Below are positions 3,146 through 35,094 of a stretch of DNA of 44,462 bases, piece after piece. The position numbers and the translations under genes were made by a program. The notes under the pieces were generated by a model. It had not been told where the DNA came from, did not search any database, and saw only the letters and a program-made list of their open reading frames with translations. This stretch comes from Desulfobacterales bacterium (GTDB lineage Bacteria; Desulfobacterota; Desulfobacteria; Desulfobacterales; JAHEIW01): positions 1-44,462 of the forward strand of contig JASFIG010000002.1 in the NCBI GenBank assembly GCA_050122795.1, read 5' to 3'. Every line of letters starts with the position of its first letter. Positions within the stretch are counted from its first letter, which is position 1.

Positions 3146-3221
3146 ACCACGAAAGCCCGACAGATTAAAAACACGAAAAAATAAAAATTTTGTGCTTTTT
3201 CAAATTTCGTGTTTTCGTGAT
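3146..3221. repeat. imperfect inverted repeat built on the word CACGAAA / TTTCGTG (weak member of the heptamer-hairpin family)
   Basis: CACGAAA (3148-3154) and ACACGAAA (3171-3178) face TTTCGTGTTTTCGTG (3206-3220), between the nuoF-like and rnfB-like genes. Periodicity is less regular than at the other loci. Confidence 0.35.
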
Positions 3222-3287
3222 GAATAGAAAAGTTTCATACATTCGGCTCAAAACCAATTATTTCTAATTTGATCTGAGGTGTTTTAA

Positions 3288-5390
3288 ATGGTTGATGCAA
3301 TCATCTTAATGGGCGGTATGGGATTGGCCATCAGCATCATTTTAGCCATCGCATCCAAGGTTTTCTACGTCTATGTTGACCCCAAGATTTTGTCGATTGA
3401 AGAAGAATTGCCCGGTGCCAATTGAGGTGGTTGCGGGCTGCCGGGCTGCAGCGCGAACGCAGAGGCCATCGTTGCCGGCACAGCGGCACCCAATTCTTGT
3501 GTGGCCGCCGGTGAAGAAGTGGCCGAAGCCATTGCCGCTATTATGGGCGTTAAGATCGAAGCTGTTGAACCGGACATCGCCCTGCCGGGCTGTTATTTTG
3601 GGATCGAGGATGCGGATACGAAATATGTGTATAATGGTCTAGATGATTGCCGCGCAGTGGCATTGCTCGGCGGCGGCATGAAAGTGTGTACCATCGGCTG
3701 CCTGGGCCTGGGGACGTGTGTCAGGGCCTGTCCCTTTGATGCCATCCGCATGGGCCCCAAAGGCCTGCCGGTCGTTATCGAACAAAGATGCACTGGCTGC
3801 GGAACCTGCGAACGGGTGTGTCCCAAACACATAATTAACCTTTCATCCATTACGCGCAGGATTATCCGGGAATATACCATGGATGAATGCACGACACCCT
3901 GCCAGCGTGGGTGCCCGGCCGGCATTAATATTCGGGAATACATCCATCAAATTTCAATTGGCGATCATCACCGCGCCGTCCAGGTCATCAAAGAACGCAA
4001 TCCCTTTCCAGCTGTGATTGGCCGAATTTGTCCGCGGCCCTGTGAGCTGGAGTGCCGACGAAATTATATTGATGAGCCGGTGGCCATCAATTATCTAAAG
4101 CGATATGCAGCTGACTATGAAAAGCAAAGCGGCAAGCGCATCCTGCCATACAAGGCGCCGGATACCGGCCGTAAAATAGCGGTTGTCGGTGGCGGTGTGG
4201 AAGGATTGTCGGTTGCATTTTTTACAGCACGCCTTGGACACGATGCGACGGTATTTGAGGCCACCGCAAAACTGGGTGGGCTGCTCAGAAGCGCTATATC
4301 AAAAGATCGATTACCCGAGGAAATACTGGATTGGGATATTGAAGGCATTGTTGAAATGGGCGTTAACGTCGAAACCCAAAAGGCTTTAGGTCGTGATTTC
4401 TCTCTAAAGTCACTGATTCAAGAAGGGTATGACGCGGTCTTTTTAGCCGCCGGCGGCTGGGACAGCCGTCTGGCACGTGGGGCAACAGATGTTATTGAAT
4501 CGCCGATTCCGGGCACTTATATGCTGGTTGACCTGCTGCGATTTGGCGCCGAGCAGTCAGAGGCGCTCACAATTGATTCTGACGTTGTGATTGCCGGCGG
4601 GGGAAAATTGGCGCTTGATGCCGCTAAAGTTTGCAAGGAAAGGGGCGCAACGTGCGTCACCGTTTTATTTCGCGAGAGTTGGGAACACAGCCCCATTTCA
4701 GACGCAGAGTTGGAAAAACGCGGTATGACCGATCTTAACCTTATTTACAATTCGGCGATTCATCGCCTGATCGGAGAAGCTGACCAGCTCAAACAGGTTG
4801 AATATATTGAAGCCGACACCGCAGAAGTGACGCGTATAGCGGCTCAGACGTTGATATTTGCCGCCGGCCGGTTTCCCGAAATGGTTTTCACCCGGCCAAC
4901 ACCGGAGGGTGATGAAGCGCAAGAAACCGATACAGTCGAATTACTACCGGATGTGTCTTTACACTGGGAAGGGACCCAACCTTATAAACAACCCGCCCTT
5001 AAAGATGAGGTCGGTCTGTTTGCAGAAGGTGACGTGCTGGCGGATTATAGCGCTGCCATTAAGGCCATCGGTGCGGGCCGTCGGGCGGCTGCTTCAATTC
5101 ATCAGATCATGCACGGTTTACCCCCTCAACTGACAGAGCATGTGATCACGCCGCAATCAACCCTGCAAAATGTGCATCATGTTGAAAAGGTGCAGGCCAG
5201 CCAGCGCCAGATCATGCCCATTTGCAGCGGCAAAGAACTGGCTCAATGCGGTGAAATTGAAAGAGGCTTTTCGGCCAGTATGGCTCAGCAAGAAGCGGAT
5301 CGGTGTCTTCAGTGCGGGTTGATCTGCTATGTGCACACCCAAATGGAGCCGGTTGATGAAAAAGCGGAACCAACCGAAGCTTCCGGGTAA
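3288..5390 (+). CDS. membrane-anchored RnfB-like Fe-S domain / 2x[4Fe-4S] ferredoxin / GltD (NfnB, StnC)-like NAD(P)H-FAD oxidoreductase fusion; predicted selenoprotein (TGA 3423-3425 read as Sec)
   Basis: ATG 3288 with GAGGTG SD. Hand translation gives MVDAIILMGGMGLAISIILAIASKVFYVYVDPKILSIEEELPGAN-TGA-GGCGLPGCSANAEAIVAG...NSCVAAGEEV, in frame with tracked ORF 3501..5390. It aligns with the RnfB/RsxB N-terminus (TM helix, then LPxxxCGxCGxPGC...C), with TGA at the first Cys. Downstream motifs are CTGCGTCERVCP, then GltD-like CPxxC/CP..CE.EC and KIAVVGGGVEGL. Confidence 0.8.
3434..3455 (+). promoter_or_regulatory. candidate SECIS-like hairpin downstream of UGA 3423
   Basis: GCTGC (3437-3441) pairs with GCAGC (3448-3452) around loop CGGGCT. 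Two more G-C pairs lie outside a mismatch. The hairpin starts about 9 nt after the UGA. Hand-folded only. Confidence 0.4.
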
Positions 5391-5466
5391 CATTCCTTCA
5401 TTCGACGCGTGCATTATTCAGGTATGTAGGTAGCGTCGTGCAAGCCATTTATAAAATATGATAAAT

Positions 5467-5689
5467 GGTGTCAGGTGTCAGTGGTCTGGTTCAAGGGTTC
5501 AGCGTTCACGGTTCAAAGGTTAAAAAGATAGTGAAAAAAGGTTAGATGTCAGAATATAGAGCAACAGTTTTAAATTGGAAACTTTAACTGAAACTTCGGA
5601 ACCGAGAACCCCTGAACCCTGAACTTCTGAACCCAGAACCCTGAACATTGACGACAGAGACCAGCAGCGATATGCTGAACCTTTGAACC
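5467..5689. repeat. heptamer-word inverted repeat (GGTGTCA/GGTTCAN x8 versus NCTGAAC-type x11), long imperfect hairpin
   Basis: Left arm 5467-5521 reads GGTGTCA GGTGTCA GTGGTCT GGTTCAA GGGTTCA GCGTTCA CGGTTCA AAGGTT. Right arm 5589-5668 is period-7 ...CCCTGAA CCCTGAA CTTCTGA ACCCAGA ACCCTGA... A terminal AACCTTTGAACC (5678-5689) is the exact complement of 5510-5521. Tracked ORFs 5520..5705 and 5584..5796 merely read through it. Confidence 0.85.
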
Positions 5690-5707
5690 ACATGAGCGAG
5701 GTCATTA

Positions 5708-6151
5708 GTGGCTACCGAACAGGGCATCGTCCTGCGGACAGATTCTGAAGCTGCCTGGGTCAAGACAACCCGGAGCAGCGCCTGCCAGGGATGCACGGCA
5801 AGAAATTCGTGTCATACCCTCAACAACAGTCAGGACATGGAAGTCAAGGCGATAAACATCGCCGGTGCCAGAGAAGGGGACCGGATTGTTTTAAGTTTTG
5901 AAACCCGCTCTCTATTGAAAGCTACATTTTTAATCTATGTTTTTCCCATTATATTTCTGGTTGTCGGTGCCGTCTTCGGGCACATGCTGGCCCCACTCAT
6001 CTCGATTCATCCGTCGGCTCTGCCAGTCCTGCTGGGATTTTCCTTCTTTTTCGCTGCGCTGCGTGTCATGAAAGCCCGGGCGAATAAAATGGCCGCGCAA
6101 AATGCCTACCAGCCAAAGATCACAAAAATCTTGGGAAGCGCCAACCATTAG
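5708..6151 (+). CDS. rseC: RseC/MucC-family (SoxR-reducing / Rnf-associated) membrane protein
   Basis: 147 aa with GTG start. The N-terminal soluble part has SACQGCTARNSC, followed by two hydrophobic helices, which is the typical RseC layout. Confidence 0.7.
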   Translation: MATEQGIVLRTDSEAAWVKTTRSSACQGCTARNSCHTLNNSQDMEVKAINIAGAREGDRIVLSFETRSLLKATFLIYVFPIIFLVVGAVFGHMLAPLISIHPSALPVLLGFSFFFAALRVMKARANKMAAQNAYQPKITKILGSANH

Positions 6152-6296
6152 CAGGCTAAAGTCAAAATGATCTTTGGTGCGTTCATCTTGAAAATGTGGA
6201 GGTATTGAGTGCTGAAGTGTAAGCGTGGAGACTGTTGATGGACGGTTTAAACGCCAGAGAGAGGCCCGCGGACCCTCTTCGCAGATCGGATTCACA

Positions 6297-6563
6297 TTAA
6301 TCTTGTTTTCTGGGAAAAAGATCTTCGATTTCAAATTCCCTGATTTTTTGAAGGCAATTTTCCAGTGCCGTTTCCTCGGTTTCACCGGTGCCCTGGAATT
6401 CCTGCCTGGCGACGATGTTCACCAAATTGGGCACGGCCACAAACTTTCCTGCCAGGTTTCCCGCCTTGGTTTCGTGCACATCGATATACATGAGTCTCTC
6501 GTTGCGAATCAGATTATACCGGGTCGTCTTTGTCAAAATATCATTTTCCTTCAATGACTGCAT
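6297..6563 (-). CDS. hypothetical small protein (possible HicB/UPF0150-like fold)
   Basis: 88 aa. AAGAGGA SD lies 7 nt upstream, and the gene starts 17 nt downstream of clpS. GKFVAVPNL...QGTGETEETALENCLQKI loosely resembles the G-x-(V/A)-x-(V/I)-P...G-x-T-x-E-E-A-L-x-N pattern of UPF0150 proteins. Confidence 0.5.
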   Translation of the reverse strand: MQSLKENDILTKTTRYNLIRNERLMYIDVHETKAGNLAGKFVAVPNLVNIVARQEFQGTGETEETALENCLQKIREFEIEDLFPRKQD

Positions 6564-6580
6564 GATAAATTCCTCTTATT

Positions 6581-6895
6581 TCATTCTTTTTCCATGCTGG
6601 TTTTGAGTGGGAATCCGTTTTCGCGCGAAATCTTTGTGACAAGGTTTATTTTTGTTTCGGCCATCTCGTAAGGATAAACGCCGCATACGCCGACACCGGT
6701 TCGATGAACCTGCCACATTAGACCTGTGGCCTCATCGATGGACTTATTAAAAACAGCAATCAGAATTTCGACTACGAATGCTTTGGTTGTGTAATCATCG
6801 TTGTGGAGCAGCACCTTATACATCGGCGGTTCGGTTGTTTTTTCATCAATTTCATCCAGAATGTCATCTTGATAATCTGGCTGTTTGGTGCCCAT
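6581..6895 (-). CDS. clpS: ATP-dependent Clp protease adaptor ClpS
   Basis: PPMYKVLLHNDDYTTKAFVVEIL...ATGLMWQVHRTGVGVCGVY is the ClpS core. The start is moved to the internal ATG (MGTKQPDY) because GGAGGA lies 8 nt upstream of it. Confidence 0.85.
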   Translation of the reverse strand: MGTKQPDYQDDILDEIDEKTTEPPMYKVLLHNDDYTTKAFVVEILIAVFNKSIDEATGLMWQVHRTGVGVCGVYPYEMAETKINLVTKISRENGFPLKTSMEKE

Positions 6896-7054
6896 TTTGA
6901 TTGTCCTCCATGAGGCATAACGCATATTACTCGTAAAACGTAAGGGCTGGCAAAAAGAAATCAAGTTAGGGGCCTTAAATTGTCAGGATGTTTGTTGAGA
7001 TAAAGCGGCGGACAACCTTCAGATCAGCATCTGGCGTAGTTTTTGGAAGATGAC

Positions 7055-7105
7055 AAAAGAAAAAGGCAGCCTATCAGCAACACGCATGCAGATAAGCTGC
7101 CTTTT
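7055..7105 (-). terminator. Rho-independent terminator of the HU gene
   Basis: AAAAGGCAGC (7061-7070) pairs with GCTGCCTTTT (7096-7105). On the minus strand the stem is followed by TTTTTCTTTT. Confidence 0.75.
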
Positions 7106-7123
7106 AAAAATTACAAATCGATC

Positions 7124-7396
7124 TTAGATGGCAGCTTTTAAACCTTTGCCGGCCTTGAATTTAACAACATTTTTGGCTTTAATTTTAATGGGGGCACCGG
7201 TCTGGGGGTTGCGACCCTTACGTGCTTTCTGACGGGTTTTCTGAAATGTTCCAAAACCCACCAGAGTGACTTTGCCGTTCTTTTTCTTCAAAGCTTTGGT
7301 CACATTGCTCATGAAAGAATCAAGTACTTTGCCAGCGGCGACTTTTGAAACTTTGGCGTCCTTTGCCATTTTGTCGATCAATTCTGCCTTTGTCAT
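7124..7396 (-). CDS. hup: HU-family nucleoid-associated DNA-binding protein
   Basis: 90 aa. MTKAELIDKMAK...GFGTFQKTRQKARKGRNPQTGAPIKIKAKNVVKFKAG is the HU/IHF signature. AAGGAGG SD. Confidence 0.95.
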   Translation of the reverse strand: MTKAELIDKMAKDAKVSKVAAGKVLDSFMSNVTKALKKKNGKVTLVGFGTFQKTRQKARKGRNPQTGAPIKIKAKNVVKFKAGKGLKAAI

Positions 7397-7447
7397 TTCT
7401 GCCTCCTTCTTTTAGTTTTGGTTTTATTTTACGGTGTTTTTTGAAAA

Positions 7448-7476
7448 AGTTTACAGCAAAATATTTGGAAAGTCAA
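7448..7476 (-). promoter_or_regulatory. sigma-70-type promoter for the HU gene
   Basis: The minus strand reads TTGACT - 17 nt - TAAACT, about 50 nt upstream of the ATG. Confidence 0.5.
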
Positions 7477-7831
7477 CAAATAAAAGCCTATCTATATTGG
7501 TTTCACAAGGAGAAATCTTTTTAAATACCCATCATCACTTAGTTTGCCGGATGCACAAATTGAAAATTTCAAAGAGTTAACTTTTATGATCCATCTGAAT
7601 CCTGAAAAATGCACGCAGCCAGTTGCCTCTGCGAAGATAGCCACCTGACCAATTATCACTTTAAAAATACTGGATAATATGATAAAAATGTGTAACCATC
7701 GTATTTCATGTGAACTAGATAACGGCTTTTTTTAGGGGGAGCCGTTATTTAATAAGCAATGGGCTGCGCAAAGCGCTGACGCTCTAAAGTGCTGTCAGGC
7801 GGGCAATCAATTGTCTCCCGGGTTTGATTAG

Positions 7832-8308: not shown

Positions 8309-8435
8309 CAACTGAAGTTCGCGCAAGTTTTGGTGCAAGATTCACGTGATGGTAATCCGGCATACCTAAAAGCCTGCTTTAATATTTCGTTTTGCCCAGC
8401 TTATCGTCTTTGCTTCCCTTCAGGAATTTTTAGCG

Positions 8436-9014: not shown

Positions 9015-9099
9015 ACGTGGAGTTGATCATCTCAATCATGATATCTCGACGTCTCATCGGATTTCCTTCAAAAAAACAGATATAAAGAGGGTAGCAACC

Positions 9100-10449: not shown

Positions 10450-10506
10450 GTGAAGGTTCGGTCTAGCGCCCAAGGGCACTTGTCAATGCGGTTCTAAGTA
10501 AACAAA

Positions 10507-10549
10507 AACGCCTGCAGCTGTTTGTTTTAACTCCAGGCGTTCATTTTTT
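10507..10549. terminator. bidirectional Rho-independent terminator between convergent genes
   Basis: AACGCCTG (10507-10514) pairs with CAGGCGTT (10534-10541). T-runs follow on both strands (CATTTTTT on plus, TTTTTGTTT on minus). Confidence 0.6.
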
Positions 10550-10593
10550 AAAACCGTCGTTGTGCTCAACTGACAAATGAAGCCACTATCGAA

Positions 10594-10628
10594 AATCCGC
10601 AATCCGCAATCTAAAATCCAAAATCCGG
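10594..10628. repeat. single-armed heptamer tandem repeat AATCCGC x5 (degenerate)
   Basis: AATCCGC AATCCGC AATCTAA AATCCAA AATCCGG abuts the stop codon (10630-10632) of the rubrerythrin-like gene. I saw no complementary arm nearby. Confidence 0.65.
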
Positions 10629-10629
10629 C

Positions 10630-11100
10630 TTAGTCTCCCATGCTTGCCATATAATCATCATACATGGTTTCCAGTGCCAGCTTGTGCTTGGCCTCCTCTT
10701 GGCAAAGGACTTTGAACAGCTTCTTGCTTTCATCCGAATCAGCTTGATCCAGAAAATCGTTGTACAGTTTCAGGGCCTTTTCTTCCCTTTTCATCGCCAG
10801 TAAGAGAATTTCATTGTAGGGCATACCCTGTTCATAGTCTAAGTCCACCAGATAATTGCTGCGTTTGATATCGGTGATCCATTTTAACTGATAGTCTTGC
10901 AGGCTTTTGGTGACTCCTTTGGATTTGAAATCCAGTAGTATTTTCTCATGCTTCTTTTCTTCAGCGGCAAACTCGGCAAACATTTTTTTTGAACCAGAGA
11001 AGTCTTCCTCCTCATCACTTATTTTTTGATAAAATTCTGCTGCCTCCCGTTCCTTATCAATGGCAAAATCGACAATAGCCTCCAAATTTTCAAATTCCAT
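10630..11100 (-). CDS. rubrerythrin/ferritin-like diiron four-helix-bundle protein
   Basis: 156 aa. It has paired E...ExxH-type motifs (EREAAEFY, EEKKHEKIL, EEKALKLY, EEAKHKLAL). Confidence 0.65.
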   Translation of the reverse strand: MEFENLEAIVDFAIDKEREAAEFYQKISDEEEDFSGSKKMFAEFAAEEKKHEKILLDFKSKGVTKSLQDYQLKWITDIKRSNYLVDLDYEQGMPYNEILLLAMKREEKALKLYNDFLDQADSDESKKLFKVLCQEEAKHKLALETMYDDYMASMGD

Positions 11101-11459: not shown

Positions 11460-11559
11460 GCGCTGTACAGCTGGCCTTTCCTTCAAATTTAGATCCCATA
11501 TTAAAAATAAGTATTCATTTTAAATACATAGAAAATGAGTGCCCTGCTATTCCGGTGGT

Positions 11560-11621: not shown

Positions 11622-12620
11622 ATGGTTGAAAAAAAGAAAAGCACACAGAGAAGTCAGGTGGGATTTGGATCGACTTATAAAAAAGTTCGAGCCGGCAGCG
11701 GAGACTTTCGGCACGGAGTTGAATCTGTTCTCGGTGGCCAGGTATGGCTGGTAAAGCCGGATCAGAAAGCCAAGGCTGCCAATCCCTGTCTGTGGATGGA
11801 GGCCGGGGTCGTCAAGTTCAAAAACTGTGACAATTATTATGATTGCACCAGCTGTAAATACGATCATGCCATGGACAACAAAGTTGCCAAGGGCAAGCAA
11901 ATCAGCTGGCAGGAAGCCATGAAAAGACGACCGGACCTGGATCGGGTTTGCCGCCACAGCCTGACCAACCGCATCGAAAAGCGGATGTGTGCCTATGACT
12001 ATGAATGCGGCAAATGTGACTTCGACCAGTATTTTGAGGATATCTGGACCACCAAAACCAAAGCCATCCCCGGCGAGATGCAGCAGATAAAAGGTTTCGA
12101 TGTTCCCATGGGCTACTATTTCCATAATGGCCATGCCTGGGCTCGAATCGAAAGCGGCGGCTATATTCGCGTGGGTCTGGATGACTTTGCGCTAAAAGTG
12201 TTGGGCGAAGCCGATGCGCTTGATCTGCCATTGATCGGCAAAGAATTGGACCAGAGCAAAGCAGGCTGGGGGCTGAGGCGCAAGGATAACCTTGCAGACG
12301 TGCTGTCGCCTATAGATGGCGTTATCATGGAGGTCAATTCCAAGGTCAGGGAAAATCCCAAGCTGGCCAATCATGAGCCTTACGGCGACGGATGGTTGTT
12401 TATGGTACGCACCCCAGATGTCAAGCGCACCATGAAGCAGTTGATGGTCGATCAGGACAGTCTGAGCTGGATGAACACCGAAGTCGGTGAGCTGGAAGGT
12501 ATGATTGAAGAGGTGGCAGGTCCCTTGGCAGCTGATGGCGGTTATCTGGTGGATGACATTTACGGAAATTTGCCGGATCTGGGCTGGAACAATCTAACCC
12601 ACAAGTTCTTACGAACTTAG
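11622..12620 (+). CDS. Cys-rich protein with C-terminal glycine-cleavage-H (GcvH)-like fold, paralog 1
   Basis: 332 aa with AAGGAG SD. There are two copies of C-x12-C-x5-C-x2-C (CLWMEAGVVKFKNCDNYYDCTSC and CRHSLTNRIEKRMCAYDYECGKC). The GcvH-like core follows: GHAWARIESGGYIRVGLDDFA...SPIDGVIMEVN...EPYGDGWLFMV. Confidence 0.8.
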   Translation: MVEKKKSTQRSQVGFGSTYKKVRAGSGDFRHGVESVLGGQVWLVKPDQKAKAANPCLWMEAGVVKFKNCDNYYDCTSCKYDHAMDNKVAKGKQISWQEAMKRRPDLDRVCRHSLTNRIEKRMCAYDYECGKCDFDQYFEDIWTTKTKAIPGEMQQIKGFDVPMGYYFHNGHAWARIESGGYIRVGLDDFALKVLGEADALDLPLIGKELDQSKAGWGLRRKDNLADVLSPIDGVIMEVNSKVRENPKLANHEPYGDGWLFMVRTPDVKRTMKQLMVDQDSLSWMNTEVGELEGMIEEVAGPLAADGGYLVDDIYGNLPDLGWNNLTHKFLRT

Positions 12621-12709
12621 TTATCCGTTATCTGTTATTGGTTGTGGGTAAATAAATGACAGTTCATAGTGTCATCCCGAATAACCAATAACCACTAACC
12701 AATAACTAC
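12621..12709. repeat. heptamer-word inverted repeat (TTATCNG x4 versus CCAATAA x4) with a central 6-bp mini-hairpin
   Basis: Left arm is TTATCCG TTATCTG TTATTGG TTGTGGG (12621-12648). The centre holds ATGACA...TGTCAT. Right arm is CGAATAA CCAATAA CCACTAA CCAATAA (12678-12705). It fills the whole spacer between the two GcvH-like paralogs. Confidence 0.8.
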
Positions 12710-12733
12710 TTGTTTATGGCAAGGAGAATCATC

Positions 12734-13660: not shown

Positions 13661-13716
13661 TTTTTTTCAGCCATCGGGTCTTTCTTTCCATCGCTGGATA
13701 CAAGACACTCGCTCAA

Positions 13717-13754
13717 AAATAAGGGATTACAGTCGATTCTGTAATCCCTTATTT
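13717..13754. terminator. bidirectional terminator hairpin (16-bp perfect stem)
   Basis: AAATAAGGGATTACAG - TCGATT - CTGTAATCCCTTATTT sits between convergent genes. The right arm overlaps the stop codon of the archaemetzincin gene. Confidence 0.7.
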
Positions 13755-22130: not shown

Positions 22131-22171
22131 AAGTCGAGAAGCGGAGATTAAGAATTTTTCCATTAAGATAA

Positions 22172-22303
22172 AAATCCGAAGCACGAAATCCGAAATTCGA
22201 AACAAATTTTAAATTTTAAATCCCAATGTTCAAAATACGTTTTGAATTTCGGTCATTTGATATTCGGATTTGTTTCGCATTTCGATATTCGCATTTCGGA
22301 ATT
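22172..22303. repeat. heptamer-word inverted repeat (AAATCCG/AAATTCG-type versus CGGATTT/CGCATTT-type)
   Basis: Left arm is AAATCCG AAGCACG AAATCCG AAATTCG AAACAAA (22172-22206). Right arm 22238-22303 contains GTTTTGAATTTCGG, the complement of CCGAAATTCGAAAC, then CGCATTT CGATATT CGCATTT CGGAATT. It lies between hdrA and mvhD. ORFs 22216..22578 and 22226..22465 are read-through artefacts. Confidence 0.75.
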
Positions 22304-22356
22304 AATAGATCTATCGTAGCACAAAGCAGTACAGCGTATATTAATCTGGAGGAAAA

Positions 22357-22788
22357 ATGGCTGAGAACTTTGAACCAATCATTATTGCCTTTTGCTGCAA
22401 TTTCTGAGGGTACACGGCGGCGGACCTGGCAGGTTCGATGCGGTTGCAATACCCGACCAATGTAAGGATCGTTCGGGTGCCGTGCACGGGAAAAGTCGAT
22501 GTGATTCATGTCATGCGGGCATTTGAAAAAGGTGCCGACGGCGTGGCCGTCATAGGATGCCTCGAAGGAGAGTGCCATTTTAATGCCGGCAACATGATGG
22601 CCCGCAGACGGGTGGAGCAGGCACAGAAAATACTGGATACAGTCGGCATTGGTGGCGATCGGGCCCAGATGTATAACCTGTCATCCAGTGAAGGCCCGCG
22701 GTTTGCGCAGTATGCCACAGAGATGACCCAAAAAATAAAAGAATTGGGCCCCAATCCGATCCGGGTTGCTAAAAACAAGGCGGCCTGA
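22357..22788 (+). CDS. mvhD: MvhD/VhuD-like [2Fe-2S] electron-transfer subunit; predicted selenoprotein
   Basis: ATG 22357 (GGAGGA SD). MAENFEPIIIAFCCNF-TGA-GYTAADLAGSMRLQYP runs in frame with tracked ORF 22438..22788. TGA 22405-22407 replaces the third Cys of the MvhD motif FCCNWC.Y.GAD.AG. Confidence 0.85.
22421..22437 (+). promoter_or_regulatory. candidate SECIS-like hairpin downstream of UGA 22405
   Basis: CGGACCT - GGC - AGGTTCG forms a 7-bp stem (one G-U) with a G-containing triloop, starting 14 nt after the UGA stop-like codon. Hand-folded. Confidence 0.4.
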
Positions 22789-22794
22789 AAAATG

Positions 22795-22910
22795 ATTGAA
22801 TATTGACTATTGAATATTGCAGATTGAAATGCGGAAAATAGTCAAATTTAAATTATAAATAGCTTCCCGGTGAAAATATTCATTTTTCAATTTTAAATAT
22901 TCAATTCAAA
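22795..22910. repeat. heptamer-word inverted repeat (ATTGAAT x5 versus ATTCAAT-type)
   Basis: Left arm is ATTGAAT ATTGACT ATTGAAT ATTGCAG ATTGAAA (22795-22829). Right arm 22872-22910 reads GAAAATATTCATTTTTCAATTTTAAATATTCAATTCAAA. It lies between mvhD and metV. Confidence 0.7.
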
Positions 22911-22927
22911 AGGAGAGGTACCATTCC

Positions 22928-26886: not shown

Positions 26887-26942
26887 ATCGCATCGGATCC
26901 TGTCAAACATCCGTGAATGAATTTTAAACAAGGAGATAGAAA

Positions 26943-28763: not shown

Positions 28764-28767
28764 TAAC

Positions 28768-28958
28768 GGGTTCTGGGTTCCGGGTTCAGAGGTTCAAAGG
28801 TTCTGGGTTCAGTCTGTGGCTGCTGGTCTCTGGTTGCTGGCAGCTGGCAGTTCATCAAGTGGTCATTGGCTCTTAGCCAGAAGCCAAAAGCGAGTAGCCA
28901 GCGGCCTTAGCATTGAAACCTTGAAAGCTTGAACCCTTGAACGCTGAACCTATGAACC
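28768..28958. repeat. heptamer-word inverted repeat, 12 + 12 heptamers with two nested word types
   Basis: Left arm is GGGTTCT GGGTTCC GGGTTCA GAGGTTC AAAGGTT CTGGGTT CAGTCTG TGGCTGC TGGTCTC TGGTTGC TGGCAGC TGGCAGT (28768-28851), followed by a 22-nt loop. Right arm is TAGCCAG AAGCCAA AAGCGAG TAGCCAG CGGCCTT AGCATTG AAACCTT GAAAGCT TGAACCC TTGAACG CTGAACC TATGAAC (28874-28957). The inner TGGCAGC/GCCAG words and outer GGTTCA/TGAACC words pair in nested order. Confidence 0.9.
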
Positions 28959-29088
28959 TGCTGAGGGCTATTGCCCGAAGCTGAAATTTTTGATATGCAT
29001 GCTCCTTTGGTTTAAATGCCGCAATCACCCCTGTTGCGGATAAGCTGCTGAGATTGCTTCAGATACAAAAAGAGGGAAAACCAAAATA

Positions 29089-31224
29089 ATGGAATCTGCC
29101 TTGATTTCGCCGGCTGCTGCAACCGTTGCCGGCATTCCGACGATCGTTTTTTCGATCCTCATCCCGCTTGTCGGTGTTGCCATTTTTGTCTACATCATGT
29201 ATCGCCGGGTCCAGCCGCTGATAAAAGCGGCACCCGATGAGCGCTTTGGTTGCATCGGGCAACGGATCGGCCTGACGCTTAAAATCTGGCTGGCCCAGTG
29301 GCGTCAGCCTCGCTATTTGCTGGCCGGAATTATCCATATTTTTATTTTTGCCGGTTTTATTATCTTGGGCGCCCGTTCTACCCAGCTGGTCATACTGGGT
29401 TTTTCGGAAAATTTTGTTTTACCCGGATTCAGCGGGAATTTTGGCCAGTTCTATAATGTCGTAAAAGATTATGCTGCCACCTGGGTTTTGATCGCCTGTG
29501 TGATCGCTGCCGTGCGCAGGGGCATTTTTAAGCCCTCACGGTATGCCGTGCCACCCCGTTACGGAAAAGATCACACCGCAGAGGCCATTTTTGTTCTGGG
29601 TTTGATCTCAACGCTGATACTCACCGAAAGCCTGTTCGAAGCCAGCCTGGTGGCTGCCGAGACCCAGAAGGGGTTGCATGCCGAATGGCCTGCATCCCTG
29701 AGCCTGGCCTGGTTTTTCAGCCATATGCTCAGCGGCGCTTCTCAAACGGCACTGCAAAATACGCATCTGATCACCTATTTTATTCATGATCTGACCTTTT
29801 TCTTTTTCCTGTGCTTTTTGCCCCTGGGCAAGCATTTTCATGTGATCACCTCTATTTTCAACGTGTTTTTCATGCGGGTTGAAAAGGGCACTGTCAAGCC
29901 GGTGCGGCACGGGATCTCCGATGAGCAGCTGGATGACCTTGACTCATTTGGCGTCAAGGTCTTTGAAGATTTTACCTGGAAACACATGCTTGATTTTTAT
30001 TCCTGTGCCGATTGCGGTCGTTGCTCGGATCGCTGCCCGGCCAATGCCGTCGGGCGCCCGCTCTCGCCGCGTTTCATTTCCATAAAAGGGCGCGATTATG
30101 CCTTCAAGCATTATCCGCTGATCAGCGGCAACGGCGCAGGGGCCAAACCATTGATCGGTGGTACTTACGACGATGATGAAATCTGGTCATGCACCACCTG
30201 CGGGGCCTGCGAACAGGAATGTCCCCTCGGGATTGAATATATCGACAAGATAGTGGATTTACGTCGCGGTATGGTCGATGACGGCTTGGTACCCCAGTCC
30301 CTGCAAAAGCCATTGGGCGCTCTTGAAAAACGCGGTAATCCTTGGGGAAAGATGGAAAGAAAGCGCGCGGATTGGACCAAGGCACTTGCCGAAGAAAACG
30401 GTGTCAAAATTCTTGAAAAGGGTGCTGAGGCCGAAACTCTTTACTTTGTAGACAGTATTACGTCCTTTGACGACCGCATGCAGGAGATTGCACGTTGCAC
30501 TGCACAAATTCTAAATGCAGCCGAAATTGATTTCGGCATTCTCGGCAAAGCTGAAAAAGACAGCGGCCACGAAGCCAGGCGCTTCGGCGAAGAGATGCTG
30601 TACCAGGACCTGCGGGATCAAAATACGGAGGCCATCCTGAATTCGGGCGCGCAACGCATTGTGACCGCCGATCCGCACGCCTTCAATGCCCTGAAAAAGG
30701 ACTACAGCGAGCTGCCGCCGGTGGAACATATCAGCCAGACGGTTGTGCGTCAGGTTCAATCCGGCAAGATTCAGCTCAGAGCGGCCGAAGATCCCTCCAG
30801 GGTCTATGTCTACCATGATGCCTGCTATCTGGGCCGCCACAATAATGTCTATGATGATCCACGAAATGCTATCGATTCGATACCCGGAATCAAACGAATT
30901 GAGATGACCGGCAACTGCCGGGATCGGTCCTTTTGCTGTGGCGGCGGCGGGCTGATGCTCTTTTATGAGCCTGAGGAAGAACAGCGCATGGGCGTGCTGC
31001 GGGTTCAAATGGCTCAAAAATCAGGCGCCAACGTTATTGTGACCGCCTGTCCGTTTTGCCTGCTGAACATAGAAGATGCCATCAAGGTCAGCGGCCTGGA
31101 AGGCCAGATGGAAGCACTGGACCTTACGGAACTGATTGCTCAGCATCTCGTTACAGATGACAGAGTTCAGAGGCCAGATGACAGAAGTCAGAATTCAGAG
31201 GACAGAGAACAGATGTCAGAATAA
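29089..31224 (+). CDS. membrane-bound Fe-S oxidoreductase (N-terminal polytopic domain + 2x[4Fe-4S] + two CCG domains; HdrD/GlpC/DsrK-like), ETF-linked
   Basis: 711 aa with about 5-6 N-terminal TM helices. Motifs: CADCGRCSDRCP, CTTCGACEQECP, and the CCG motifs CCGGGG and CPFC. The last ~23 aa (DDRVQRPDDRSQNSEDREQMSE) are encoded by a heptamer repeat, so the native C-terminus is uncertain. Confidence 0.85.
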   Translation: MESALISPAAATVAGIPTIVFSILIPLVGVAIFVYIMYRRVQPLIKAAPDERFGCIGQRIGLTLKIWLAQWRQPRYLLAGIIHIFIFAGFIILGARSTQLVILGFSENFVLPGFSGNFGQFYNVVKDYAATWVLIACVIAAVRRGIFKPSRYAVPPRYGKDHTAEAIFVLGLISTLILTESLFEASLVAAETQKGLHAEWPASLSLAWFFSHMLSGASQTALQNTHLITYFIHDLTFFFFLCFLPLGKHFHVITSIFNVFFMRVEKGTVKPVRHGISDEQLDDLDSFGVKVFEDFTWKHMLDFYSCADCGRCSDRCPANAVGRPLSPRFISIKGRDYAFKHYPLISGNGAGAKPLIGGTYDDDEIWSCTTCGACEQECPLGIEYIDKIVDLRRGMVDDGLVPQSLQKPLGALEKRGNPWGKMERKRADWTKALAEENGVKILEKGAEAETLYFVDSITSFDDRMQEIARCTAQILNAAEIDFGILGKAEKDSGHEARRFGEEMLYQDLRDQNTEAILNSGAQRIVTADPHAFNALKKDYSELPPVEHISQTVVRQVQSGKIQLRAAEDPSRVYVYHDACYLGRHNNVYDDPRNAIDSIPGIKRIEMTGNCRDRSFCCGGGGLMLFYEPEEEQRMGVLRVQMAQKSGANVIVTACPFCLLNIEDAIKVSGLEGQMEALDLTELIAQHLVTDDRVQRPDDRSQNSEDREQMSE

Positions 31225-31319
31225 AGCGAGAAGGCAAATTGAGGCGAATATTTATCTGTCTTCTGAACTCTGGTATCTGTCCTCTGTTAGTGAATAACCA
31301 ATAACCAATAACGAATAAC
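31154..31319. repeat. heptamer repeats: CAGANNN x10, complementary NNNTCTG x5, then GAATAAC x4
   Basis: CAGATGA CAGAGTT CAGAGGC CAGATGA CAGAAGT CAGAATT CAGAGGA CAGAGAA CAGATGT CAGAATA spans 31154-31223. TTATCTG TCTTCTG AACTCTG GTATCTG TCCTCTG spans 31252-31286. GAATAAC CAATAAC CAATAAC GAATAAC spans 31292-31319. Confidence 0.85.
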
Positions 31320-31338
31320 GACATTCCGGAGGAATAGT

Positions 31339-32130
31339 ATGGAAATTTTGGTTTGTGTCAAAAGGGTTCCGGACACTGCGGAAAATGAAATCGAAGTCAA
31401 CCGGGACGGTTCAGACATCGAGCGCGATGATCTGGTCTACTCGGTCAACGAGTGGGACAATTATGCGGTCGAAGAAGCTATTCAAATCGTCGACAAAGTC
31501 GGTGGCGCCGTGACGGTCGTTTCCCTGGGGGACGAGGATGCCGAAGAAGTCGTCAGAAGAGAGATGGCCATGGGCGCCAACAACGGGATTCTGGTATCCG
31601 ATGATGTCTTTGAGAAGTCGGACGGAAAAGGTATTGCCGCGATTCTGATGTCGGTTGTCGAAAAGGGCAAATACGACCTGATCCTAACCGGCGCGCAGGC
31701 AGATGACGGCGCCGGTCAGATTGGCGGCATGCTGGCGGCCATGCTGGACGTTCCCTATGCTTCGGTTGTCAATTTTATCGAAGTTGTCAACGACAGCCAG
31801 CTTAAGGTCGGCCGGGAAATTGAAGGCGGCAATCAGGAAATGAGCGAAATTGCGCTGCCCTGCGTGTTGTCCATCCAGACCGGTATAAACGAGCCGCGAT
31901 ATGTAGGGATTCGCGGTATCCGCAAAGTCGCCTCGGTGGACATCCCTGTCTGGGGGGCCTCCGATCTGAGCATTGACGCTTCCAGCGTGGGTGAATCCGG
32001 CGCTGCGGTCAAACGGGTCGATTATTTCGTTCCGGAGCTTGGCGAAGGCGCCGAAATTCTCGAGGGCAGCAGTGAGGAGATTGCCGAAAAGTTGATTGAC
32101 CTATTAAAAGCCAAAGGAGGAATAAAATAA
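31339..32130 (+). CDS. etfB: electron transfer flavoprotein beta subunit
   Basis: 263 aa. MEILVCVKRVPD..., with the EtfB layout throughout. GGAGG SD. Confidence 0.9.
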   Translation: MEILVCVKRVPDTAENEIEVNRDGSDIERDDLVYSVNEWDNYAVEEAIQIVDKVGGAVTVVSLGDEDAEEVVRREMAMGANNGILVSDDVFEKSDGKGIAAILMSVVEKGKYDLILTGAQADDGAGQIGGMLAAMLDVPYASVVNFIEVVNDSQLKVGREIEGGNQEMSEIALPCVLSIQTGINEPRYVGIRGIRKVASVDIPVWGASDLSIDASSVGESGAAVKRVDYFVPELGEGAEILEGSSEEIAEKLIDLLKAKGGIK

Positions 32131-33104
32131 TGGCCGCACAGGTTTTCGCATATATCGTACATAAAAATGGTGTTGCCGATGATACGGCTCTGGAACTCGT
32201 TTCAGCCGCTCGAAATATTTTTCCGGATGCGCCACCCACTGCCATTGTGACCGGTGCCGGTGCTGAACTGGATGCGGTCTGCAATGAACTGTCTGCCTCT
32301 TTTGCGGAGGTGTGGAAATTCGACAACGAAGCGCTGGCTTATCCAAATGCCGAAGCCATTCGAAAACTGCTGGTGGCCGTATTGCCGGCAGACGCAGTTG
32401 TGCTCGTGCCGCATGATACCTTTGGAATGGACCTATCACCGGGCCTTTCGGTCAAACTGGATTCAGTGTTTGTGTCCGATGCTGCCGGTTTTGAGGGGCT
32501 GGATGGGGACTCCCTTAACGTAATTCGTCAGGAGTACAGCGGTCAGGTCAGCACCCATTTGACAGCAGATATTTCCGCCGGTGCCGTTATCAATGTTCGT
32601 CCGGGGGTATTTCAACCGGATGAAAGCAAATCAGCCGGCGGTCAGGTGATTGATAAATCATCGGAAATCGGCGATCTATCCGTTAGCCGACGGTTTTTGG
32701 AAGTTGTAGAGGCCGAGGCCGGAGACGTGGACATTACCAAAGAAGACATTCTGGTTTCAATCGGCCGCGGCATCGAAGATCAGGATAATATTGAAATTGC
32801 TGAAGAACTGGCCGAGGCTGTGGGTGGTGTCGTATCCTGTTCGCGACCGATCGTTGATGCCAAATGGCTTGAAAAGCCGCGTCAGGTCGGGACTTCGGGG
32901 CAGACGGTCAAGCCAAAAGTTTACCTTGCGCTGGGTATCAGTGGCTCTTTTCAGCACCTCGGCGGAATTAAAGGCAATCCCTATATTGTTGCCGTGAATA
33001 AAAACCCCAAAGCGCCCATTTTTCAGGTCGCAGATGTCGGGGTTGTCGATGACCTTCTTGATTTCGTGCCGGTGCTGACTGAAAAGATCCAAGAAGGTAA
33101 ATGA
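32130..33104 (+). CDS. etfA: electron transfer flavoprotein alpha subunit
   Basis: 324 aa. The C-terminal FAD-binding region reads VSCSRPIVDAKWL...QVGTSGQTVKPKVYLALGISGSFQHLGG. TAATG overlap with etfB. Confidence 0.9.
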   Translation: MAAQVFAYIVHKNGVADDTALELVSAARNIFPDAPPTAIVTGAGAELDAVCNELSASFAEVWKFDNEALAYPNAEAIRKLLVAVLPADAVVLVPHDTFGMDLSPGLSVKLDSVFVSDAAGFEGLDGDSLNVIRQEYSGQVSTHLTADISAGAVINVRPGVFQPDESKSAGGQVIDKSSEIGDLSVSRRFLEVVEAEAGDVDITKEDILVSIGRGIEDQDNIEIAEELAEAVGGVVSCSRPIVDAKWLEKPRQVGTSGQTVKPKVYLALGISGSFQHLGGIKGNPYIVAVNKNPKAPIFQVADVGVVDDLLDFVPVLTEKIQEGK

Positions 33105-33132
33105 TCACTGCTTCCATTTGAAGCGTATTTGT

Positions 33133-33176
33133 ATAGCCGTCTGCATGAGGGGTGCCGCCGGACGGCTATTTTTTTC
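33133..33176 (+). terminator. Rho-independent terminator after etfA
   Basis: ATAGCCGTC (33133-33141) pairs with GACGGCTAT (33161-33169), followed by TTTTTTT. Confidence 0.75.
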
Positions 33177-33244
33177 ATCAGTTTTATGCTATCTTTTGTG
33201 CGCATCTAACTATCCGTCAATCTATTCAGCAAACGAGTGGAGCT

Positions 33245-34510
33245 ATGAAAAAAGGGGCCACTTATAAGACAATACGGGTGTTTGCGGTTATCCTGGCTGC
33301 TATTCTCATTGCCACCGTACTGGTCATCCTGCGGCCCAAAGCCGAACGCCGCGTGGTGGAAGACAAGGGTCGGTTGGTTGAAGTATTTGCCGCCCGGGCC
33401 GAAAAAGTTCAGATGGTCATTGAGGCTTACGGCACGGTTAAACCGCGCGAGGAATTGCTACTGGTGGCCGAGGTCCGGGGCCAGATTGTTGCCACGGACC
33501 CGACCTTTGAAGAGGGAAATTTTATTACCCGTGGAACCCGGCTGATCCAGATTGATCCACGCACTTACGAACTGGACGTGCAACGGACCAAAGTCCAAAT
33601 CAAACAGGCCCAGGCGGAGATCAAACGTCTTGAGCAGGAGGTCTTAAACCTGCAGGCGCGCATCAAGATTGCCCAATCTGACGTTGCGCTTGCTAAAAAT
33701 GAATATTTCAGATTGAAAAAATTGATCGATCGAAAAGTGATCGCCCAGTCCACCCTGGATAAAACCGAGCAGCAATATCTGGCAAGCCAGGAGCGCTTGC
33801 AGGCGCTCGAAAACCAGCTGGCCCTGACGGGGCCCCAAAAAGAGCAGCTCCTGGCCCAGCGGGATATGGCCAAAGTGATGTTTGAAACGGCTAAGCTGGA
33901 TCTTGAAAGATCCGCTATTATCGCGCCTTTTGACGGTTGGGTTCTGGCAAAGACGATTGAAGTCGGACAGCACGTCACCATCGGGCAGAGCATGGGCCGA
34001 ATCTACAGTACCGGCGAATTGGAAATCGAGGTGCGAATTCCGGTCAAGGATTTTAAGTGGCTGCCGGCGGATATGAACGGGGGAGCCCGCATCGAGGCAG
34101 ATGTTATCTTCGAAAATCAAGGTGCGCAGATCCTCTGGAACGGGCAGGTGACGCGGGTCAAAGCGGAGATGGATGACAAAACGCGCACGCTGCCGGTGAT
34201 CATCGAAGTTGACGCATTATCAGACTCCGGCGAAAACAGCAATGCTTTGCGCCTGCGGCCGGGTATGTTTGTAACTGCCAGGATTAAAGGCAAAGCGGTG
34301 AGCCAGGCCTTCGTCCTCCCGCGCCACCTCGTTTACCCGGGAGATCGGGTTTATACAGTTGAGGGGGACCGTCTCAAAATTAAGTCCGTTGATATATTGC
34401 GCGCGTACAAGGATTCAGTCATCGTCAGCCAGGGTCTCTCGGACGGCGAGCGCATTATCAAAACACCGCTGTCGGACGTCACAGATGGTATGCTGGTTCG
34501 TATTAAGTAA
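33245..34510 (+). CDS. RND efflux periplasmic adaptor (membrane fusion protein, HlyD family)
   Basis: Start set at MKKGATYKTIRVFAV (GGAG SD). It has an N-terminal anchor helix, a coiled-coil hairpin (QAQAEIKRLEQEV...), and beta-barrel/lipoyl-like segments. Confidence 0.85.
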   Translation: MKKGATYKTIRVFAVILAAILIATVLVILRPKAERRVVEDKGRLVEVFAARAEKVQMVIEAYGTVKPREELLLVAEVRGQIVATDPTFEEGNFITRGTRLIQIDPRTYELDVQRTKVQIKQAQAEIKRLEQEVLNLQARIKIAQSDVALAKNEYFRLKKLIDRKVIAQSTLDKTEQQYLASQERLQALENQLALTGPQKEQLLAQRDMAKVMFETAKLDLERSAIIAPFDGWVLAKTIEVGQHVTIGQSMGRIYSTGELEIEVRIPVKDFKWLPADMNGGARIEADVIFENQGAQILWNGQVTRVKAEMDDKTRTLPVIIEVDALSDSGENSNALRLRPGMFVTARIKGKAVSQAFVLPRHLVYPGDRVYTVEGDRLKIKSVDILRAYKDSVIVSQGLSDGERIIKTPLSDVTDGMLVRIK

Positions 34511-34608
34511 CAGAGGTCAGAGGACAGAGGACAGGGGTCAGAGGACAGGGGACAGAGGTCAGAGAATAGAGAACGGATAGGGGTCAGAGGGCAAAAGACA
34601 GAGGATAG
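34511..34608. repeat. CAGAGGN heptamer array x14 (5' arm of the four-helix-bundle cassette)
   Basis: CAGAGGT CAGAGGA CAGAGGA CAGGGGT CAGAGGA CAGGGGA CAGAGGT CAGAGAA TAGAGAA CGGATAG GGGTCAG AGGGCAA AAGACAG AGGATAG runs from the base after the MFP stop to the base before ATG 34609. It supplies the SD GAGGA (34601-34605). Confidence 0.9.
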
Positions 34609-34974
34609 ATGAGCATTCAGAGCGTAAAGGATCTCGAAGTTTACCGGCTCGCATTTGAGCTGGCAATGAAAGTATTTGAACTTACCAAAAAATTTCCGAA
34701 GGAAGAAAAATATTCGTTAACGGATCAAATTAGAAGATCATCTCGATCTGTGCCAGTAAACATTCGAGAAGGATATGCAAAAAGAAGATATGAAAATTTA
34801 TTTATAAGGCATTTAAATGATGCAATGGGTTCATCTGAAGAAACCAGGGGCTGGTTAGATTTTGCGCTTGGTTGCGGCTATATCGATCAAGACGAACGTG
34901 ACGGCCTGGATAAAAAATATGATGAAGTCAATGCAATGTTATACAGTTTAATGAATCGTTGGGAGTCACTGTAG
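34609..34974 (+). CDS. four-helix-bundle protein (23S rRNA intervening-sequence protein / Avd family)
   Basis: 121 aa. DLEVYRLAFELAMKVFELTKKFPKEEKYSLTDQIRRSSRSVPVNIREGYAKR...FIRHLNDAMGSSEETRGWLDFA fits the pattern of this family (TIGR02436 / PF05635, from memory). Confidence 0.8.
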   Translation: MSIQSVKDLEVYRLAFELAMKVFELTKKFPKEEKYSLTDQIRRSSRSVPVNIREGYAKRRYENLFIRHLNDAMGSSEETRGWLDFALGCGYIDQDERDGLDKKYDEVNAMLYSLMNRWESL

Positions 34975-34976
34975 CA

Positions 34977-35094
34977 CAGAGGACAGATGGCAGAAGACAG
35001 CTACAGAAACAAGAATTGGAAAGCGAAGGACTGCCTTCTGACTTTCGATCCTTGATTTCTGATATCTGTCCTCTGACTTCTGACCTCTGACCTC
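34977..35094. repeat. 3' arms of the cassette: CAGAGGA-type x4 followed by complementary TGACCTC-type x9
   Basis: CAGAGGA CAGATGG CAGAAGA CAGCTAC spans 34977-35004. TGCCTTC TGACTTT CGATCCT TGATTTC TGATATC TGTCCTC TGACTTC TGACCTC TGACCTC spans 35031-35093, followed by A9 and ATG 35104. Confidence 0.9.

Follow-up and report, generated by a model that had tools for sequence, protein, structure and literature searches.

The 44,462-nucleotide stretch of Desulfobacterales DNA analyzed here (contig JASFIG010000002.1 of assembly GCA_050122795.1, "the window" in what follows) carries arrays of degenerate tandem heptamers in the spacers of its operons. Most loci are two-armed, the second arm being the reverse complement of the first. 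On balance, these heptamer loci are probably selfish hairpin elements of the intervening-sequence type that reside in transcribed operon spacers, and they are probably substrates of RNase III. The complete form would be a cassette at 34511-35095, in which a purine-rich array, a gene of the PF05635 family and a complementary pyrimidine-rich array follow one another; the other two-armed loci would be members or derivatives of such an element that lack the open reading frame (ORF). The PF05635 identity of the cassette ORF is the key to the locus: as judged from its sequence matches, it encodes a four-helix-bundle protein known as the 23S rRNA intervening-sequence protein (S23p).

The four-helix-bundle cassette and its relatives

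The cassette ORF (34609-34974, + strand, 121 aa) matches PF05635 with E 6.7e-35 and TIGR02436 with E 3.6e-32 (110.8 bits against a cut-off of 24), and the PDB entries 2GSC (E 4.8e-14) and 2RLD (E 3.8e-10). It is preceded by a left array of 14 CAGAGGN heptamers (34511-34608, +), which extends from the base after the stop codon of the upstream gene to the cassette gene ATG. A short internal CAGANNN array (34975-35010, +) follows 3' of the cassette gene stop, and then a right array of nine NCCTCTG/TCTGAYN units (35031-35095, +), which ends 8 nt 5' of the ATG of the downstream gene (35104). The left array is purine-rich and the right array complementary and pyrimidine-rich; the terminal arms, 34511-34563 and 35037-35089, are 53 nt long and 74% complementary. 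The internal array is an alternative partner for the right arm in place of the left array. RNA fold energies, scored here and below as z against dinucleotide shuffles, are -50.9 kcal/mol (z -8.1) for 34975-35100, and z is -6.5 for the whole of 34505-35100. The neighbors encode a HlyD-type membrane-fusion protein (MFP) and an AcrB-type RND pump; no rRNA is present. At a locus of the same species from another metagenome sample (L003), the left array is exactly 42 nt, or six heptamers, shorter, which is a copy-number polymorphism within the population.

A scan of one genome per species yielded 80 loci encoding relatives 56-98% identical to the window protein. Their hosts belong to the Desulfobacterales, Omnitrophota, Planctomycetota, Atribacterota, Bacteroidota, Cloacimonadota and Marinimicrobia, and include an ANME-1 archaeon. 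Homologues number about 7,600 in all, and Desulfosarcina widdelii PP31 is a cultured carrier (L017, cassette in NZ_AP021875.1 at 3.234-3.237 Mb). Period-7 arrays lie upstream of the gene at 65 of these loci, downstream at 69 and on both sides at 57, with other periods at background. The heptamer upstream can be read as a rotation of CAGARNN, and that downstream as the complement. An earlier prediction for this DNA, made from its letters alone (the original prediction), had left the family of the cassette ORF unrecognized and had proposed to look for co-variation of the arms between relatives. The cassette arms do change jointly: 6-mer sharing, measured from the upstream array to the downstream array in reverse complement, is higher within a locus (0.29) than between loci (0.14), and in the variant words CGGAGGA, TAGAAGG, GATGGAA and GAAAATC the change is matched in both arms. 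The duplex is stronger on the sense than on the antisense strand at 62 of 78 cassette loci (p = 5e-6), as G-U pairing in RNA would lead one to expect; RNAduplex overstates the energies of 200 x 250 nt flanks (-75 kcal/mol is reached even after shuffling), and only paired comparisons were used.

The placement of the cassettes is strict. Both neighbors are on the strand of the cassette gene at 59 of the 66 scorable loci and in the opposite sense at one (p = 1e-16), as read from open frames of at least 120 aa, a proxy for curated gene calls. In the median, the left array begins 6 nt short of the point where the upstream stop codon ends, and the right array stops 13 nt before the next start. The elements occupy the spacer from the upstream stop codon nearly to the downstream ribosome-binding site, in sense orientation. 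Among the loci numbered L010-L089, the proteins of the ANME-1 archaeon, Atribacterota, Planctomycetota, Omnitrophota and Bacteroidota are 60-75% identical to that of the window. This similarity is far above the divergence of the hosts, and the gene therefore appears to move horizontally along with its arrays.

The same layout occurs within rRNA. In Azospirillum lipoferum (L176), a 23S rRNA gene confirmed by Rfam (LSU, 2545 bits) contains a four-helix-bundle ORF in sense orientation, flanked by CAGAGGA/GGACGGA heptamers and their complement. The 23S intervening sequence of Coxiella has two or three strain-variable GACAGAT heptamers before the S23p ORF; RNase III, which excises 23S rRNA intervening sequences, cleaves this one in vitro where the first GACAGAT repeat begins (PMC4990558). 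Because the Azospirillum and Coxiella layouts match that of the cassette, the latter is of one kind with the ORF-bearing rRNA intervening sequence, known from Leptospira, Coxiella burnetii and Azospirillum, placed in an mRNA operon. The likeness extends to a homologous ORF within terminal inverted repeats that form a long stem, to the heptamer words (GACAGAT in Coxiella, CAGAGGA in Azospirillum, CAGAGGN in the window), to a strain-variable copy number, and to an ORF that is in sense with the host transcript and prone to decay. The differences are that the window cassette lies between protein genes of an efflux operon rather than in helix 25 or 45 of 23S rRNA, that its arrays are much longer (14 and 9 units versus 2-4), and that RNase III excision has been demonstrated for the rRNA elements whereas for the window cassette it is proposed by analogy.

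The Azospirillum locus and further copies came from a tblastn search of plasmids, which returned 53 records, mostly from Nostocales; eight were inspected. The cyanobacterial copies keep the layout but have purine-rich words of their own, which are GCAGGGA/TCCCTGC in Nostoc flagelliforme and GGGAAAA/TTTTCCC in Geminocystis. The Anabaena sp. 90 plasmid (L175) has about 40 ACAGGTG units upstream and four TGTCACC units downstream, between cas6 and cas4, and the Picosynechococcus plasmid (L173) has GGAGATA/TATCTCC between cas10 and cmr3. In Leptolyngbya, the inverted purine-rich/pyrimidine-rich flanks have an irregular period, and the period-7 test calls no array; Oscillatoria has direct purine-rich arrays only, and Nostoc PCC 7120 a downstream array only. 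A figure legend in PMC10910872 places "23S rRNA IVP" among CRISPR-associated genes, a listing that may be explained by four-helix-bundle inserts within cas operons such as those of L173 and L175.

Heptamer hairpins in the operon spacers of the window

Tandem Repeats Finder called a period-7 array at each locus of the original prediction. In a sliding self-match test requiring at least 17 of 21 matches, seven runs were found at period 7, one at period 8 and none at periods 4-6 and 9-12; long runs were otherwise seen only at 14, a multiple of 7. The same test gave no period-7 run in 100 Markov-1 controls, versus seven in the window. An inverted-repeat search showed that the second arms repeat the first in reverse complement over 23-53 nt, with 70-94% complementarity. 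Most two-armed loci fold better than dinucleotide shuffles (z about -4 to -8), the exception being the AT-rich locus at 22790-22912, where the fold is weak (z -1.6). In these models, the complementary arms fold into imperfect stems of 25-60 bp. No RNA structure is predicted for the single-armed arrays at 10585-10630 and 31288-31322. The 7-nt period, the imperfect hairpins formed by complementary arms and the single-armed state of 10594-10628 and 31292-31319 were thus all correctly anticipated by the original prediction. So was the placement of every two-armed copy between co-directional genes and of none in a divergent spacer: 8/8 lie between co-directional genes, filling 8 of the 15 co-directional spacers of at least 40 nt versus 0 of 7 divergent or convergent ones (Fisher p = 0.022).

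Within these spacers, the arrays start 0-6 nt past stop codons and finish just ahead of ribosome-binding sites. The flanking genes, for which the predicted functions agree with Pfam, encode NuoF-like, RnfB-GltD and RseC proteins, two GcvH-like proteins, a giant HdrA-like protein, MvhD, MetV/MetF, an acyl-CoA dehydrogenase (ACAD), a CCG-domain FeS oxidoreductase, EtfB/EtfA, the MFP and the RND pump; the HdrA, MvhD, MetV/MetF and Etf content fits a sulfate reducer. Inside the hairpin spacers of the 21-36 kb region, no sigma-70-like promoter or terminator-like site was found on the + strand. The elements are therefore expected to be read through as part of a polycistronic mRNA, and their interpretation as intrinsic terminators or promoters was rejected on the same ground. 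Nor do they show the GC-rich stem and T run of an intrinsic terminator, the cassette being followed by an A run. A CRISPR array, with repeats of about 24-48 nt and unique spacers, was also rejected, as the units are 7 nt long and stand head to tail without spacers. An Rfam scan of the window detected no known RNA family and no rRNA.

All arrays are given on the + strand. The first hairpin, detected as inverted repeats, is an imperfect CACGAAA/TTTCGTG structure at 3148-3219 between the NuoF-like gene (ending at 3104) and the RnfB-GltD-like gene (starting at 3288); the segment 3140-3225 folds with -20.3 kcal/mol (z -5.0). In the RnfB-GltD/RseC spacer, a left arm of GGTGTCA and then GGTTCAN heptamers (5466-5521, period 7 by Tandem Repeats Finder) pairs with 5599-5690, part of a right arm of NCTGAAC/GAACCNN heptamers (5589-5690) that ends 18 nt 5' of the RseC start at 5708 (fold of 5460-5695, z -4.8). 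Between the two GcvH-like genes, four GTTATCN units (12617-12648), TAACNGA-like when read on the minus strand, begin at the stop codon of gene 1 (12618-12620), and four to five AATAACC units (12673-12711) finish just ahead of the start of gene 2 (12710/12717); the hairpin 12615-12712 has z -5.4. The HdrA-like/MvhD spacer holds an AAATCCG-type left arm (22172-22221) and a CGGATTT/CGCATTT-type right arm (22238-22303; fold of 22155-22310, z -4.1). In the weakly folding MvhD/MetV spacer, five ATTGAAT units (22791-22829) begin 3-6 nt past the MvhD stop (22786-22788), and an ATTCAAT-type right arm (22872-22910) ends 5' of the MetV ribosome-binding site and ATG (22928).

The most elaborate structure is a nested hairpin in the ACAD/CCG spacer. 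Its left half (28764-28853), which begins 1-5 nt past the ACAD stop (28763), consists of seven outer GGTTCNG units and inner CTGGYWG words, and its right half (28874-28960) of inner GCCAG words and six outer TGAACC units. The sense strand of 28764-28962 folds with -98.6 kcal/mol (z -7.5), the antisense strand with only -72.2. Ten CAGANNN units (31153-31226) form the left arm and five NNNTCTG units (31252-31287, from the inverted-repeat search) the right arm of a further hairpin with z -4.5 (31150-31290). The original prediction was right about the array at 31154-31223 and wrong in assigning it to a spacer: it lies within the last ~24 codons of the CCG-domain oxidoreductase ORF, whose stop is at 31224. 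This ORF extends 75 nt past its aligned end, versus 6-15 nt in array-free relatives, and by this comparison the array has become part of its 3' end. Of the single-armed arrays, the AATCCGC/AAATCCA array at 10588-10628 (period 7 by Tandem Repeats Finder, fold z +1.2) lies in the convergent spacer between a glycosyltransferase and a rubrerythrin gene. The other, four AATAACN units at 31288-31322, is unstructured and directly precedes the etfB Shine-Dalgarno sequence (GGAGG; ATG at 31339).

Other features of the window were noted in passing. The convergent spacer between GcvH-like gene 2 and an M54 peptidase gene contains a strong hairpin without 7-nt periodicity (13661-13748, -26.3 kcal/mol, z -4.6), which from its predicted fold is probably a bidirectional terminator. 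In-frame TGA codons occur at conserved cysteine positions in two genes: at 3423-3425 in the RnfB-like N-terminus of gene 3288-5390 ("LPGAN*GGCGLPGC") and at 22405-22407 in the MvhD gene, 22357-22788 ("AFCCNF*GYTAADLAG"). They probably encode selenocysteine. Both genes are cut short by ORF finders because of these codons; the true starts are ATG 3288 and ATG 22357.

Turnover of the elements and competing explanations

The original prediction regarded each locus as having its own word and the loci as something other than a dispersed repeat. Neither view holds. Four words each occur at two loci: GGTTCA/TGAACC at 5467-5690 and 28768-28958; CAGA/TCTG, in three arrays, at 31153-31287 and 34511-35095; AATAAC or its complement, also in three arrays, at 12673-12711 (complement at 12617-12648) and 31293-31319; and AAATCCG-type words at 10588 and 22172. 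The window was also compared with 80 related operon loci from metagenomes (numbered L090 upward). Both arms of the HdrA/MvhD hairpin (22171-22298) recur in the CCG/EtfB spacer of L097 and L104, with identities of 96% across 49 nt and 91% across 53 nt, and the CCG oxidoreductase of these loci is only about 78% identical to that of the window. The hairpin is near-identical at a non-orthologous spacer, and therefore at least this one belongs to a dispersed family. The idea of a shared construction rule fared better, in that neighboring arrays in the window's clade share reverse-complement 6-mers at 0.169, versus 0.027 for random cross-locus pairs (p about 1e-12), with direct sharing of only 0.044. 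An exact search of IMG/VR with the core of the AAATCCG hairpin gave no match.

Arrays are restricted to the close clade, with 5-11 per locus in L090-L106 and about none in distant relatives, where the spacers measure 20-130 nt. Complete genomes of the array-rich clade include CP070694.1 and AP021875.1. The MFP/RND spacer contains an intact four-helix-bundle gene in the window and L090, a frameshifted or truncated one in L092, L094 and L099, the CAGA arms with little more of the gene than its opening 12 or so codons in L105, hairpins with another word (GGGGCAT/ATGCGCC) in L096 and L100, and no element in L107 and L135. These spacers form a decay series, in which the ORF-less hairpin of L105 is the product of an internal deletion in a cassette. 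The retention of CAGA arms and ~12 codons at the same spacer directly supports the suggestion, made before, that ORF-less hairpins are related to the cassette. A search through 900 kb of related operon loci turned up four-helix-bundle ORFs or fragments at the MFP/RND site alone. A 40-aa frame near AATAACC arrays in the MFP/RND spacer of L103 was considered as a C-terminus of such a protein and dropped, as it has no Pfam match and its sole homologue is a 51-aa hypothetical protein.

Other spacers change in different ways. At ACAD/CCG, the outer GGTTCA/TGAACC arms are kept in six relatives and the inner arms differ, giving nested hairpins; L091 has GGTGTCA/TGACACC in both arms instead. At HdrA/MvhD, the word is replaced between genomes with flanking proteins about 93-95% identical, so that the spacers are not alignable. 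The MvhD/MetV hairpin (22791-22910), like its whole spacer, is 93-98% conserved in L090 and L091; the three orthologues are 97% identical. Over these relatives, array-bearing spacers have the stronger predicted structure (median z -3.1, versus -1.3 for array-free spacers, p = 9e-4).

Some elements of the same spacers are of a different nature. Immediately upstream of the etfB Shine-Dalgarno sequence, L090-L103 retain the AATAACN array, down to 74% protein identity, as the adjoining hairpins change. G-poor and unstructured, the array may be a ribosome standby or enhancer site with a separate role in translation initiation. In the 3' part of the ACAD/CCG spacer (about 28975-29020), a motif, GGGCTATTGCC ... 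GATATGCATGCTCCTTTGGTTTAA, is conserved in all relatives to ~73% protein identity and stays constant (L090-L135) while the upstream hairpin turns over; its conservation suggests that it may be a regulatory site. The ACAD/CCG spacer of L103 (about 1647-1972) carries a long and highly structured repeat of another type (z -6.3), with a period of ~16 nt and the palindrome AGCGCT as its basis (CAAGCGNAGCGCTCNT ...), at a spacer that has heptamer hairpins in other relatives.

According to the explanation favored here, the arms would pair in the mRNA, the insert would be looped out, and a long double-stranded stem would form, which RNase III would cleave as it does in rRNA intervening sequences. The insert would be tolerated because the arms pair, loop it out and allow the stem to be cut; as a side effect, the operon transcript would be divided into segments with stem-protected ends. 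The role of RNase III gains weight from the kinship of the cassette with the RNase III-excised 23S intervening sequences. Gain, loss, decay, resizing by 7 nt and occurrence at non-orthologous sites are the sense in which the elements are called selfish, horizontally spread DNA, and the arrays may serve in this spread as portable homology arms or hairpin targets.

Several observations weigh against this explanation. The tie to the four-helix-bundle gene is confined to the CAGA-word hairpins; for those with GGTTCA, AATAAC/GTTATC, AAATCCG, ATTGAAT and CACGAAA words a link to it is hypothetical. A broadened hidden Markov model found no four-helix-bundle ORF at 68 IMG/VR loci with four GGTTCAN units, on viral contigs that are a poor proxy for host lineage, and a tie between the GGTTCA word and the gene finds no support there. 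The GGTTCAN arrays of IMG/VR are two-armed in only 7 of 73 cases, and 27 lie within long open frames. Most ORF-less hairpins of the window are equally stable on both strands, and because either strand folds equally well, an RNA-level role is not indicated for most of them. Some array-bearing spacers of relatives fold no better than shuffles, the neighbor orientation at the 80 cassette loci comes from the open-frame proxy, and the model leaves the 7-nt unit length unexplained.

Hairpins grown by slippage could alternatively be mRNA elements that benefit the host, selected for the stability of mRNA segments or for expression ratios in the manner of repetitive extragenic palindromic (REP) sequences and bacterial interspersed mosaic elements (BIMEs), with the cassette as an unrelated passenger. 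The intra-operon location, the filling of the spacer from stop codon to ribosome-binding site, the exact 7-nt steps in copy number (42 nt in L003), the conservation of the MvhD/MetV hairpin, the greater structure of array-bearing spacers and the retention of outer GGTTCA arms around differing inner parts would all be in keeping with such selection. It is nevertheless unlikely, given that distant relatives have the same operon with short array-free spacers, that words are replaced at one spacer between genomes with nearly identical flanking proteins, that the same hairpin sits at a non-orthologous spacer, and that the CAGA hairpins have the word of the cassette, one of them being its deletion product. 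Quite improbable, in our judgment, is a role of the heptamer as the unit for a single-strand binder (a cold-shock, S1-like or pentameric four-helix-bundle protein), which the arrays would titrate or position to control downstream translation, the second arm masking the sites. It draws on the AATAACN arrays directly 5' of start codons (31293-31319 and 12680-12706), their position kept to 74% identity, and on their sharing this placement with Beggiatoaceae TAACTGA repeats, for which such binding was proposed (PMC4679880). The left arms of the cassette are purine-rich with GAGG/GGAG, Shine-Dalgarno-like, and the right arm has an alternative pairing inside the cassette. However, many words would demand many specificities, binding is argued by analogy from placement, neither the two-armed rule nor long stems are required by it, and Coxiella S23p is apparently not produced in vivo (PMC4990558).

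The arrays might also be neutral DNA quasi-palindromes, arising by lineage-specific 7-nt slippage and intrastrand template switching, with no RNA function and no mobility. An excess of heptamer repeats in bacteria has been ascribed to polymerase slippage, as cited in PMC4692102, and the limitation of arrays to one clade, their fast turnover and length polymorphism, and the equal stability of most ORF-less hairpins on either strand would fit such an origin. What speaks against it is that arrays accompany one gene family across phyla with the same word, the 59:1 sense bias, the G-U excess on the sense strand of the cassette arms, and near-identical hairpins at non-orthologous sites of different genomes. 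Neutral origin is accordingly considered very unlikely.

Relation to known repeat systems

The short tandemly repeated repetitive (STRR) heptamers of heterocystous cyanobacteria, described around 1990, had been named as the closest comparison. They are a looser one than the ORF-bearing rRNA intervening sequence, which has a homologous gene and the same word. Like STRR, the window loci are degenerate tandem heptamers in non-coding transcribed DNA, with several word families per genome. Vioque is said to have described, in 1997, an STRR insert in helix P12 of RNase P RNA, where it reportedly extends the helix and so would correspond to the ORF-less two-armed form. The window host differs in being a member of the Desulfobacterales (closest genome, the Desulfobacterales metagenome-assembled genome JASFGN010000237.1) and not a cyanobacterium, the words differ, and in the classical description STRR are direct repeats that follow no two-armed rule. 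We know of no described link between STRR and four-helix-bundle genes; among the eight plasmid records inspected, cyanobacterial PF05635 genes do have inverted heptamer arrays at their flanks.

TAACTGA repeats (MacGregor 2015, PMC4679880) occur in Beggiatoaceae, cyanobacteria and Bacteroidetes as intergenic arrays of 2-6 or more units, placed forward a few bases 5' of start codons, with a patchy phyletic spread that suggests horizontal transfer. They have a single word and are almost always single-armed, with 1 inverted set among 170 (PMC4679880). The AATAACN and minus-strand TAACNGA words of the window are 1-2 mismatches per unit from TAACTGA, and the AATAACN arrays likewise end near starts (31293-31319, with ATG 31339 after the Shine-Dalgarno sequence; 12680-12706, with the start at 12710/12717), whereas the window loci are mostly two-armed and use several words. 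A search of the window for TAACTGA direct repeats yielded, at 2 mismatches, just an overlapping pair of minus-strand matches (12617-12637).

REP sequences and BIMEs of enterobacteria are similar in being imperfect, co-transcribed intra-operon hairpins of a dispersed family that affect the stability of mRNA segments. They differ in that REPs are conserved palindromes of ~35 nt without 7-nt periodicity, linked to the RAYT transposase, and the window words are diverse; no transposase family was matched by Pfam among the window ORFs, and no RAYT gene is present in the window. The Avd proteins of diversity-generating retroelements have a homologous four-helix-bundle fold, and the cassette protein has a weak Pfam match to bAvd (E 2e-5). 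This assignment was rejected, as the NCBIfam Avd score is 20.1 bits against a cut-off of 80 and there is no reverse transcriptase among the 30 main ORFs; near the cassette, neither a template/variable repeat pair nor a reverse transcriptase was found.

None of the components, whether heptamer repeats, S23p intervening sequences or four-helix-bundle proteins, is new in itself. In a literature search that left most subscription journals outside its reach, no description was found of inverted, co-varying heptamer arrays as general flanks of PF05635 genes, of their near-exclusive sense placement in operon spacers, or of the array-rich Desulfobacterales clade, and only the Coxiella paper (PMC4990558) connects heptamers with an S23p intervening sequence. 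A wider proposal, offered tentatively and perhaps doubtful, is that PF05635 proteins and heptamer arrays make up one hitherto unrecognized pan-prokaryotic class of operon-resident element, each protein lineage having its own word and perhaps recognizing or propagating it. The ORF-less hairpins, and possibly the STRR and TAACTGA arrays, would then be non-autonomous forms, and the 23S intervening sequences copies that landed in rRNA.

STRR, TAACTGA repeats and S23p intervening sequences have so far been unexplained and handled as separate oddities, and the data presented here link them. The gene with its inverted heptamers is found in rRNA and, far more often, in ordinary operon spacers across many phyla, in strict sense orientation and spanning the whole spacer between stop and start codons. 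This architecture matters for annotation and assembly, since contigs frequently break at such arrays. It also bears on operon expression in sulfate reducers, the affected operons of the window being those of core energy metabolism: Hdr/Mvh/MetVF, Etf-linked acyl-CoA oxidation, and an Rnf/Nuo-like complex.

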